Assembly: GCF_013122565.1 (NCBI RefSeq)
Contig: NZ_CP053258.1
Source of the DNA: Escherichia coli
Lineage (GTDB): Bacteria > Pseudomonadota > Gammaproteobacteria > Enterobacterales > Enterobacteriaceae
Direction: 5' to 3' (one strand)
Length of the DNA: 64,000 bases
Shown: positions 15,211 through 19,330 of the stretch, in pieces
Layout: each line of letters begins with the position of its first letter
How positions within the stretch are numbered: position 1 is the stretch's first letter
Program-made: the position numbers and the translations under genes
Notes under the pieces: generated by a model
What the model was told of the DNA's origin: nothing
The model's database searches: none
What the model saw: only the letters and a program-made list of their open reading frames with translations

Positions 15211-17472
15211 TTACCCCCGACGCAAATTCTGCGCCGCCTGCACCATGTTCGCCAGTGCCGCGCGGGTTTCTGGCCAGCCGCGCGTTTTCAGGCCACAGTC
15301 CGGGTTGACCCACAGGCGCTCTGCCGGAATGCGTTTTGCCGCTTTCTTCAGCAAGGCTTCAATCCATTCCACGCTCGGTACGTTTGGCGAGTGAATGTCA
15401 TAGACGCCTGGACCGATTTCATTCGGATAATCAAACTCTTCGAACGACTCCAGCAACTCCATGTCAGAACGCGAGGTTTCGATGGTGATGACGTCTGCGT
15501 CCAGCGCCGCAATCGAATCCATGATGTCGTTGAACTCGCAATAACACATGTGGGTGTGGATTTGTGTGTCATCTTTCGCCACGGCGGCGTTGATACGGAA
15601 GGCCTCTACGCCCCACTGGAGATAGGCATCCCAGTCGCTACGACGCAGCGGTAAACCTTCGCGCAGCGCCGGTTCATCAATCTGGATGATGCCAATTCCT
15701 GCGGCTTCCAGGTCCGCCACTTCATCACGCAGCGCCAGCGCAATTTGTTTGGCGATGGTTTCACGGCTGACATCTTCACGCGGGAACGACCAGCAGAGAA
15801 TGGTCACCGGGCCAGTCAGCATCCCTTTCACCGGTTTATCAGTCAGAGATTGCGCATACTTCGCCCACTCCACGGTAATCGGTGCCGGGCGGCTAACGTC
15901 ACCAATGACAATCGGTGGCTTCACGCAGCGGGAACCGTAGCTCTGTACCCAACCGTTTTGCGTAAAGACAAAACCGTCGAGGTGCTCGCCAAAGTATTCC
16001 ACCATGTCATTACGCTCAGCCTCGCCATGAACCAGCACATCCAGTCCCAAACGTTCCTGCTCAACAATGGCCTGCTTGATATGTTCCGCAATGCCCGTGC
16101 GGTAGTTGTTAGCGTCGAGATTACCCTTTTTGAAATCCAGACGCAGGGTACGAATTTCCGTAGTTTGCGGGAAAGAACCAATCGTGGTGGTCGGCCATGC
16201 TGGGAGTTTAAAACGCGCACGCTGGGCTTCAGCACGCACTTCATAGACATTCGCACGCTGACTGTCCTGAGCGGTGATCGCTGCCAGACGCTTTTCCACC
16301 GCCGGATTATGTACGCGGGTTGAGTGACGACGCGCCTGAATCGGGGCGCTCCACTCTGCCAGAGCTGCCGTGTCACCACTGTTCAGCGCATCGCGCAGCA
16401 GTGCCAGTTCATGGCATTTTTGTAGGGCGAAGGCAAACCAGCTTTTCACTTCTGCATCAAGACGCGTTTCCACGCTCAGGTCGATGGGGCTGTGCAACAG
16501 TGAGCAGGAAGATGCCACCCACAAATCGCGTTTGCCGACAATGTCCTTAATTTGCGCATATTTCTCGGTAAGATCGGCGCGCCAGACGTTACGACCATTG
16601 ATCAGACCCGCAGACAGCAACCAGTCAGAAGGCAGGCGCTTGTGCAGTTCAGCAACGTCATCTTTACCATGTACAAGGTCCACATGCAGCCCCTGAACAG
16701 GCAGCGCAGTAATCGTGTCGAGGTTTGGCGTTACGCCTTCAAAATAAGTGGTCAGCAGCAGTTTCACCTGGCCCTGGAGCGCGTCGTAAGCGGGTTTGTA
16801 TGCGTCCAGCCACGCCTGCGGTAGTTCCAGTACCAGCGCGGGTTCGTCGATCTGTACCCACTCAATGCCGCGTTTTGCCAGTTCTGCCAGCACTTGCTGA
16901 TAAACCGGCAGAATGTCGTTCAGCAGGCTCAGGCGGTCAAATTGTTCACCTTTCACTTTCCCCAGCCACAGCCAGGTAACCGGCCCCAGCAGCACAGGTT
17001 TCACCTTGTGGCCCAGCGCCAGCGCCTCGTCCACTTCGTCCAGCAGCTGCGTCCAGGTCAGTTTGAACTGTTGGCCTTTAACGAACTCCGGCACCATGTA
17101 GTGATAGTTGGTGTTAAACCATTTGGTCATTTCCGCTGCCGCCGCAGGTTCGCCAGTCGGCGCACGTCCACGACCAATACGGAACAGGGTGTCGATATCT
17201 ACCGAACCATCTTTGTTCTGATGACGCGCCGGAACGTTACCCAGCAGCAGACTGGTGGTCAGTACATGATCGTACCAGGCAAAATCGCCCACCGGCAGCA
17301 GGTCGATACCCGCTTGCTTTTGTTGATCCCAGTGACGAGCACGCAATTCACGCCCTACCGCCAGCAGTTCTTCACGCGTGGAGTTCCCCGCCCAATAACT
17401 CTCTTGCGCTTTTTTCAGCTCGCGACGCAGGCCAACGCGAGGGAAACCGAGGGTGTGATTAAGAATTGTCAT
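15211..17472 (-). CDS. metE: Cobalamin-independent methionine synthase
   Basis: 753 aa, [29 protein letters not shown]. Confidence 0.96.
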
Positions 17473-17499
17473 TATATGCCCCTTATGGAATTTTTAGTA

Positions 17500-17560
17500 T
17501 TTAGCCGTCCAGATGTTTACACATCCATAATTGGCGGTTACTGTATATTCCTCAAGCGCA
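17500..17560. promoter_or_regulatory. metE-metR divergent control region with tandem MetJ-box-like octamers
   Basis: agccgtcc agatgttt acacatcc resembles three tandem degenerate AGACGTCT met boxes, between divergent metE and metR starts. Confidence 0.45.
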
Positions 17561-17589
17561 AATTATTCATGCCGAAGTGAAGGACTTTC

Positions 17590-18543
17590 ATGATCGAAGT
17601 AAAACACCTGAAAACGCTACAAGCGTTGCGGAACTGCGGCTCGCTCGCAGCCGCTGCGGCGACGTTGCATCAGACGCAATCCGCCCTGTCTCACCAGTTT
17701 AGCGATCTGGAACAACGCCTTGGCTTCCGGCTATTTGTGCGTAAGAGCCAGCCGCTTCGCTTTACACCGCAGGGAGAAATCCTGTTGCAACTGGCAAACC
17801 AGGTGCTGCCGCAAATCAGCCAGGCACTGCAAGCCTGCAATGAACCGCAGCAGACGCGTCTGCGCATTGCCATTGAGTGCCATAGCTGTATTCAGTGGCT
17901 GACGCCCGCGTTAGAAAATTTCCATAAGAACTGGCCGCAGGTAGAGATGGATTTTAAATCGGGCGTGACGTTTGACCCGCAGCCTGCGTTGCAACAGGGC
18001 GAGCTGGATCTGGTGATGACCTCCGATATCCTGCCGCGCAGTGGCCTGCATTATTCGCCGATGTTCGACTATGAAGTGCGTCTGGTGTTAGCACCTGATC
18101 ATCCACTGGCGGTGAAAACGCGAATCACGCCGGAAGATCTCGCCAGCGAGACGCTGTTGATTTATCCGGTGCAGCGTAGCCGACTGGATGTCTGGCGGCA
18201 TTTTCTTCAGCCGGCAGGCGTCAGCCCGTCACTGAAAAGCGTCGATAACACCTTATTGTTGATTCAGATGGTTGCCGCGCGGATGGGTATTGCCGCGCTA
18301 CCGCATTGGGTAGTAGAGAGTTTTGAGCGCCAGGGTCTGGTGGTGACCAAAACCCTGGGCGAAGGCTTGTGGAGCCGACTGTACGCCGCCGTGCGCGATG
18401 GCGAGCAGCGTCAGCCGATTACAGAAGCATTTATTCGCTCAGCGCGCAATCACGCCTGCGATCATCTGCCGTTTGTGAAGAGCGCGGAGCGACCCACTTA
18501 CGATGCACCCACAGTGAGGCCAGGATCACCAGCGCGCCTGTAA
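17590..18543 (+). CDS. metR: LysR-family transcriptional activator MetR
   Basis: 317 aa, N-terminal [40 protein letters not shown]. Confidence 0.95.
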
Positions 18544-19330
18544 TAAACGTTGGCCAGTGCGGCTGTTGGTGCCAGATAGCCAGGTTTACCAGCAGCCCTG
18601 CCGGAACGTGCATATTATTCATAATGCCCAGCGTTCCGGCGTCTACTTGGGTTGCGCCGTAGTTCCACATAAAGTAGCCAATCCCGGAAGCCACCACGCC
18701 AAGAAACACCAGAATGCCCCATTGCAACGTGGTTTGCGGCATTTTCTGCGCATTTCCCAGCAAGAACCATGCAATTACCGCCACCAGGAACGCGCCAAGA
18801 TAGAACCACGCAAAGGCGTTATGCTGCGGCATCGGGCGAGTTTCCATCAGGCGTTTGTAACCCACCATGCCGATGGCAAAAGTGATATTGGAGAGTTGCA
18901 CCAGCAACAAGCCAGTCCAGAAATGGTCGGTGACCTGATCATAGCGAATAATCCCGGCACCAATCACCGCCAGCAAGGCGCTAAAAGCATAGCCCCAGCG
19001 CAGACGGCGCTTACTCATGATGTCATAAATCAGCGTGATGTAGAGCGGCGTCAGCACGGTGAACAGCAGCAGCTCGGAAACCGTCAGGTAGAGATAGGCG
19101 CGGAAACTCAGCATATACATCACGCCAAGCTGCATCGCGCCCACCAGCATATACAGGCCGACCGTTTTCAGGCTATTGCCACGGGTACGCAGAAACGGCA
19201 GAAAAACGAGTGCCGCCAGGCCAACGCGCACCAGCACGGCAAAATAGCTATCGACGTGCCCCGCAAGGTACTCGCCATAAAAACTAAAGGAGAAGGCCCA
19301 CAAAATCGTGGTGATGATAAGTAGCGCCAC
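18431..19330 (-). CDS. yigM: EamA/DMT-family transporter (biotin uptake)
   Basis: 299 aa, ~10 TM helices; 3' end overlaps metR 3' end by ~113 nt on the opposite strand. Confidence 0.85.

Follow-up and report, generated by a model that had tools for sequence, protein, structure and literature searches.

Why should two genes that face each other end inside one another, and does such an arrangement serve a purpose? The question is raised by metR and yigM of Escherichia coli, a tail-to-tail pair on opposite strands whose 3′ ends are common to both. The window is the whole stretch of 64,000 nucleotides that was analysed (contig NZ_CP053258.1 of assembly GCF_013122565.1); unless K-12 is named, coordinates refer to it. 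According to the list of open reading frames, the features are:

17590..18543, plus strand: metR coding sequence, ATG start, 317 aa, LysR-type activator of metE/metH
18431..19330, minus strand: yigM/bioP coding sequence, GTG start, 299 aa, biotin transporter of the EamA/DMT family
18431..18543, both strands: convergent coding overlap of metR and yigM, 113 nt

For each gene this amounts to the stop, 36 complete sense codons and part of one more. The original prediction had taken this overlap for real, and had read from it overlapping 3′ untranslated regions or transcripts and possible antisense interference between methionine regulation and the transporter.

Two genuine genes and a genuine overlap

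Both open reading frames are genuine genes, as judged by their Pfam domains, the annotation of K-12 and RefSeq, the published function of BioP and the PDB structures of MetR domains. MetR contains HTH_1 at residues 5-63 and LysR_substrate at residues 86-288 (4.3e-18 and 3.4e-47). Its residues 1-92 align with PDB 5fo5, the DNA-binding domain of E. coli MetR, and residues 87-296 with PDB 4ab5, the regulatory domain of a Neisseria MetR. The combination of HTH_1 with a LysR substrate-binding domain, and a metE gene lying divergently at 15211..17472 on the minus strand, fits a LysR-type regulator. For MetR, AlphaFold2 gave no usable model (mean pLDDT 47.9), and the domain boundary was taken from Pfam and PDB sequence homology. 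In YigM, Pfam recognizes EamA in two stretches, the last of which ends at residue 275. K-12 and RefSeq annotate the gene as bioP, biotin transporter, and the function of BioP has been published (PMC5120140, PMC4049904), with ten helices stated for the protein (PMC4049904). The AlphaFold2 model of YigM (mean pLDDT 84.2, pTM 0.81) has 11 helical segments, which we read as ten predicted transmembrane helices, segments 231-239 and 241-253 being one helix split by a one-residue break.

The overlap of these genes is equally real. It is evident from the list of open reading frames and the sequence, and K-12 and RefSeq annotate it too. The K-12 coordinates (bioP 4011076..4011975, metR 4011863..4012816; b3827/b3828) give an identical overlap of 113 nt, and exactly the same metR/bioP overlap is annotated in PGAP-annotated genomes. 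Of 5426 complete E. coli genomes, 5425 carry the locus, with 95-99% identity. Compared with K-12, the window carries 39 substitutions over the 1741 nt from one start codon to the other, none of them within the overlap.

According to Palleja et al. (2008, PMC2478687), long overlaps are often misannotations, and it is only when convergent that overlaps of more than 60 bp can be real. One gene might end earlier and leave no coding overlap, and shorter forms of YigM do occur in some strains. Neither frame of the window has an earlier stop, however, and the lengths of 317 aa for MetR and 299 aa for YigM, which the original prediction had called the expected ones, equal those of the K-12 reference proteins. 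Since convergent overlaps hinge on stop codons alone and not on the choice of start, errors of ORF calling do not account for the overlap. A scan with YigM, taking one genome per species, gave 80 Enterobacteriaceae loci, or 81 sequences including the window. In this set the stops are canonical in 80/81 (yigM) and 70/81 (metR) sequences, with earlier stops in just one yigM and two metR genes. On the grounds of stop-codon geometry, canonical lengths and the rarity of earlier stops we reject an annotation artefact, to which we give next to no credence.

The metR/bioP overlap is already annotated and published, real and ordinary. Cote et al. (2016, mBio) remarked that yigM "overlaps substantially" with metR (PMC5120140). 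In their work, strains deleted for metR behaved like those deleted for yigM, in that the deletion was synthetic-lethal with bioA and made cells sensitive to a BioA inhibitor; the authors ascribed the phenotype of the metR deletion to a disrupted yigM, the Keio metR deletion phenocopying the yigM deletion (PMC5120140). The K-12 bioP-metR pair of that study is the same locus with the same 113-nt overlap and protein lengths, and structurally there is no difference from the window. An analysis of how conservation and constraint are handed over between the two genes was not found in the literature searched, and is presented here.

Conservation in and beyond the Enterobacteriaceae

The 1741 nt spanned by the two genes, start codon to start codon, are free of indels in all 81 Enterobacteriaceae sequences. 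In 70 sequences the overlap has the 113 nt of the window; in the remaining 11 it ranges from 68 to 116 nt. Such constancy goes beyond a frame left open by chance. The position of the yigM stop is unchanged in 80/81 sequences, the exception being a yigM truncated at codon 285. The metR stop is unchanged in 70/81; it has moved downstream by one codon in nine sequences and upstream by five in two.

Loci beyond the Enterobacteriaceae were obtained via MetR clusters. There, the overlap is 116 nt in Nissabacter, 98 nt in Dickeya dadantii, 95 nt in Rahnella and 56 nt in Serratia odorifera. In these four the overlap length modulo 3 is 2, and the phase is thus the same as in the Enterobacteriaceae. MetR has 307-324 aa and YigM 281-299 aa outside the family. 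Conservation in other enterobacteria, proposed earlier as a check, is therefore borne out by 81/81 Enterobacteriaceae sequences and by several outside the family. In Mixta gaviniae, metR and yigM are convergent but 471 nt apart with zero overlap, and the proteins have 281 aa (YigM) and 307 aa (MetR). In Pantoea, the gene downstream of metR is not yigM.

The Mixta gaviniae gap (L094, 3425-3895) holds an 82-aa open reading frame and two G+C-rich hairpins. The hairpin beside yigM is followed by a T run, and both flanking proteins are without long tails.

A word-indexed protein search with YigM returned relatives of at least 82% identity and no other families, and exposed truncated variants. An exhaustive search of representatives gave the homologues P0125, P0126 and P0129 (at most 51% identity), which do not lie beside metR and are uninformative on the origin of the overlap. 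The fragment representatives P0128 and P0130 were left out, neighbour genes at their loci being called only as fragments. Some loci (L087, L088 and L089) keep the order yigL-yigM-metR-metE, with yigL, metR or metE called only as fragments; their genomes are probably decaying and possibly belong to symbionts. In the Dickeya dadantii locus (L084, 556-1455, a Logan assembly), yigM runs out of frame over residues ~205-240 and then returns, which suggests assembly errors or a compensated frameshift. From this locus the gene ends alone were used.

The control region on the other side of metR is variable. The divergent metE-metR intergenic region spans 117 bp in the window (17473-17589) versus 236 bp in K-12 (L003, 2318-2553). 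The additional ~119 bp of K-12 form a nested imperfect palindrome with the inner arms CCCCGGTCACTTACT and AGTAAGCTCCCGGGG, which we take to match the core of the ERIC/IRU repeat. Over the 81 Enterobacteriaceae sequences the region is dimorphic, 38 being short (115-126 bp) and 43 long (200-262 bp), and short and long forms coexist within single genera.

Each gene supplies the stop codon of its partner

The two ends of the overlap are set by the following stops:

18433-18431, minus strand: yigM stop TAA, antisense of positions 2-3 of MetR Phe281 (TTT) and position 1 of Ile282 (ATT)
18541..18546, plus strand: tandem metR stops TAA TAA, antisense of YigM F262-I263-T264

The 3′ end of yigM reads GAA TAA and that of metR CTG TAA TAA. 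MetR Phe281 is encoded by TTT in 81/81 and Ile282 by ATT in 80/80 sequences. The alternative Phe codon TTC would turn the yigM stop into TGA. As either Phe codon followed by a codon that begins with A yields a stop on the opposite strand, loss of the yigM stop requires changes in conserved MetR residues. The metR stop, in turn, lies one codon later exactly where YigM residue 264 is Leu or Val (FILG, FIVG; eight species) or Met (E. albertii).

Constraint changes hands inside the overlap

The phase of the overlap places codon position 1 opposite position 1, position 2 opposite position 3 and position 3 opposite position 2. A synonymous change in one gene thus alters the middle base of a codon in its partner. 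In the per-site diversity of the 81 sequences, the period-3 pattern of variation switches inside the overlap, which divides into three parts:

18434..18483: MetR-dominated half, MetR I282-S298 opposite YigM R283/S284 and tail 285-299
18484..18496: doubly constrained 13-nt core, MetR A299-E-R-P302 (plus strand) and YigM W279-V-A-P282 (minus strand)
18497..18540: YigM-dominated half, YigM T264-K278 (last transmembrane helix) opposite MetR tail 303-317

In the first part, MetR I282-S298 closes the regulatory domain and includes the conserved FV[KR][SN] motif. Diversity at MetR codon positions 1/2/3 is 0.053/0.046/0.286 (81 sequences), so that the variation falls on MetR position 3, that is, YigM position 2. 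Here, constraint is strong for MetR only. On the YigM side, R283/S284 are still largely conserved and the tail 285-299 is variable. The third part is the mirror image: diversity at YigM positions 1/2/3 is 0.097/0.109/0.340 (81 sequences), variation at YigM position 3 being variation at MetR position 2, and YigM alone is constrained.

Between the two lies the least variable 13-mer of the entire 1741-nt alignment (18484-18496, rank 1 of 1729). Even the synonymous choices of this core are frozen, including rare codons (rare CGA in 80/80 and rare CCC in 81/81 sequences, GTC in 80/81, GCT in 76/76 and CCG in 81/81). Purifying selection is strong in both frames only here; elsewhere one frame prevails. 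Mean pairwise amino acid identity of the proteins is as follows:

MetR: residues 1-279, 0.927; residues 280-302, 0.955; residues 303-317, 0.539
YigM: residues 1-261, 0.875; residues 262-284, 0.834; residues 285-299, 0.674

The C-terminal tails are probably mostly passengers

The structured part of MetR ends at about residues 296-302, homology reaching residue 288 in Pfam and residue 296 in the PDB (Neisseria MetR), with the tail outside. The last transmembrane helix of YigM ends at about residues 284-287. In the YigM model this last helix covers residues 259-287, pLDDT falls below 50 over residues 286-299, and the tail 286-299 is predicted to be disordered. The standard Keio design, if used for metR, would presumably remove YigM from residue ~269 onward, that is, within its last transmembrane helix.

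True dual coding would mean that both tails are functional and selected and that the 113 nt are needed by both proteins. Features that could be functional are present: the YigM tail is basic, cytoplasmic and ends in Ser-Glu, and the MetR tail is Pro-rich with conserved Asp305 and Ser313. Moreover, the canonical tail lengths are kept in 80/81 (YigM) and 70/81 (MetR) Enterobacteriaceae sequences. Resampling, diversity and codon-fixation statistics, all of which ignore the phylogenetic non-independence of the 81 sequences, bear on this reading in both directions: under synonymous resampling the YigM tail is expected to be open in a fraction of 0.87 and is observed to be open in 80/81, and the MetR tail is expected to be open in 0.59 and is observed to be open in 79/81. 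Part of the openness of the tails is thus a free by-product of the partner's protein sequence. The excess seen for the MetR tail, which favours dual coding, derives mainly from YigM Val268, which is GTG in 78/81 sequences, equalled in invariance by no background Val column; with GTT or GTC in its place, codon 313 of MetR would become a stop.

With the same proviso on phylogeny, synonymous diversity of MetR opposite the YigM tail is reduced (0.270 vs 0.385), and only 0.8% of background windows are as low, which again speaks for selection. The MetR codons that are unusually fixed, Ala285 GCG, Cys290 TGC, Ile282 ATT and Phe281 TTT, preserve YigM A296, R291 and E299 as well as the TAA stop, and frozen synonymous choices in YigM likewise preserve MetR D305 and S313. 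Against this, YigM shows no such reduction opposite the MetR tail, its synonymous diversity matching the background (0.430 vs 0.421). Identity of the tails is just 0.54-0.67, the YigM tail being predicted disordered. Their lengths vary in Yersiniaceae, Pectobacteriaceae and Erwiniaceae, and Mixta manages with short proteins and no overlap. Finally, YigM has been truncated independently in nature at 278-285 aa. Taken together, dual coding over the full 113 nt is unlikely, and we conclude that both tails are largely carried along, the YigM tail being under weak selection.

These truncations merit a closer look. YigM variants of 278-286 aa occur in E. coli, Salmonella, Kluyvera, Citrobacter, Serratia and Mixta, for instance:

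Salmonella Gaminara: truncated YigM, 285 aa
Kluyvera species: truncated YigM, 284 aa
Citrobacter portucalensis: truncated YigM, 285 aa

In an E. coli lineage, a YigM of 278 aa (P0286) is found on at least 75 contigs. The allele changes yigM W279 from TGG to TAG, corresponding to C to T at window position 18495 (position 2336 in L095/L096). The change is silent in metR (P302, CCC to CCT) and cuts the overlap to 50 nt. A shorter functional YigM had been named as what would speak against the coding overlap. Shorter open reading frames (278-286 aa) do occur in nature, to judge from their sequences, but yigM of the window is full length.

Transcription and termination

If both mRNAs are full length they must overlap, because the coding sequences do. 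A terminator scan found no intrinsic-terminator-like site near the overlap on either strand. The sole terminator-like hit falls within the metR gene, at 18144 on the plus strand and thus ahead of the stop, and is no more than expected by chance. A bidirectional intrinsic terminator between or within the gene ends was considered and rejected, there being no G+C-rich hairpin flanked by an A-tract and a T-tract. Rfam has no match at the overlap, and folding of the alignment revealed no covarying RNA structure (covariation term -0.74, one compensatory pair). Base composition may point to another mode of termination:

18600..18850, plus strand: C-over-G tract downstream of the metR stop, candidate Rho-loading region; GC skew -0.13 to -0.21
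18250..18400, minus strand: C-over-G tract just past the yigM stop, candidate Rho-loading region; plus-strand GC skew +0.21 to +0.27

For the yigM strand, Adams et al. (2021) reported Rho-dependent termination in a region that peaks at K-12 position 4011704 (PMC7815308, supplementary file 2), with a Rho score of 5.07 and p = 1.3e-12 in 800-nt windows. The peak corresponds to about position 18702 of our window, within yigM and ~270 nt ahead of its stop. At a resolution of ~800 nt, it may reflect termination past the stop followed by 3′ trimming. The tables of that study contain no Rho entry for metR, and neither of the two genes has a curated 3′ end in them (PMC7815308). The metR and yigM transcripts thus likely overlap, as the original prediction had implied, and are likely ended by Rho, the published Rho support being for the yigM strand only.

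Could this transcript overlap be the point of the arrangement? In a regulatory excludon, convergent transcription would make metR and bioP mutually antagonistic, either because RNA polymerases collide or because RNase III cuts the mRNA duplex, and would couple methionine/SAM status with biotin uptake. Biotin synthesis consumes SAM, which lends such a link a conceivable logic. The arrangement is old, no terminator separates metR from bioP, and bioP-metR is in fact listed by ExcludonFinder, from RNA-seq coverage, among 165 convergent excludons in at least 50% of 58 MG1655 transcriptomes (PMC12288877). Such a listing is near-automatic for overlapping coding sequences, however, and is silent on reciprocal expression. 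We detected no conserved RNA structure and no conservation beyond what both proteins explain, the genes lie 471 nt apart in Mixta, the metR neighbour differs in Pantoea, and Rho already limits read-through on the yigM strand (PMC7815308). A literature search found no study of bioP and metR as a pair, whether on reciprocal expression, on RNase III processing of a duplex or on a phenotype of the overlap.

A parallel is offered by the convergent mscL-arfA excludon of E. coli, which, as outlined in PMC10070815, shares with bioP-metR the 3′ transcript overlap of convergent neighbours. For mscL-arfA an antisense regulatory effect is reported there. The bioP-metR overlap differs in being coding on both strands rather than untranslated. 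On balance, mutual antagonism of metR and bioP is very unlikely. A more specific variant, which strikes us as even less probable, holds that an excludon-type switch retained the overlap in Enterobacteriaceae, Yersiniaceae and Pectobacteriaceae: derepression of MetJ control at low SAM would raise metR and lower full-length bioP mRNA, or the reverse, linking methionine/SAM to biotin uptake, and the extra synonymous constraint (MetR codons 281-298 and YigM V268) would then act at the RNA level and not through the tails.

Probably an old convergent pair with superposed tails

In our judgement, metR and yigM are probably an old convergent pair whose poorly constrained C-terminal tails are superposed on the coding ends of the partner. 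Past the structured end of MetR or YigM, each frame carries on, antisense to the conserved end of its partner, up to a first stop. This first stop is built from partner codons, MetR Phe-Ile providing the TAA of yigM and YigM Phe-Ile-Thr the TAATAA of metR. As codon position 3 faces position 2, synonymous substitutions in the constrained gene alter the tail of its partner, so that tail sequence varies and tail length stays fixed. The 13-nt hinge at 18484-18496 is the sole stretch constrained for both proteins.

On the RNA level, the arrangement leaves no room for an intrinsic terminator, and both mRNAs would thus read into the partner gene as antisense. Both are probably terminated by Rho after translation stops. 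The overlap would need no regulatory purpose. A special significance of the overlap is not supported, and nothing in the sequence calls for the antisense interference that had been envisaged.

Long convergent overlaps are found elsewhere in prokaryotes. In E. coli, 75 convergent overlapping pairs have been counted (Huvet and Stumpf 2014, PMC4161906), and Palleja et al. (2008) arrived at 54 plausible long convergent overlaps, most of them conserved only among very close species (PMC2478687). The metR/yigM pair, which is not mentioned in the supplementary files of the latter study (PMC2478687), resembles other long prokaryotic convergent overlaps in being tail-to-tail and set by the position of stop codons. 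Unlike most of the Palleja cases, it is kept family-wide, and with varying length in several Enterobacterales families.

In practical terms, neither metR nor bioP can be mutated, deleted, interrupted by an insertion or recoded at its 3′ end without a change in the partner. A genetic screen, for instance, was misled by its Keio metR mutant via the yigM overlap (PMC5120140), and in a natural E. coli lineage one base change that is silent in MetR (18495 C to T) cuts BioP short. Should the small residual constraint seen in the tails, or an antisense effect, prove real, the locus would provide an extra link between methionine and biotin, which none of the present results demands. In any case, metR and yigM show that a long convergent overlap can persist throughout a family at almost no cost, the double burden falling on 13 nt only.
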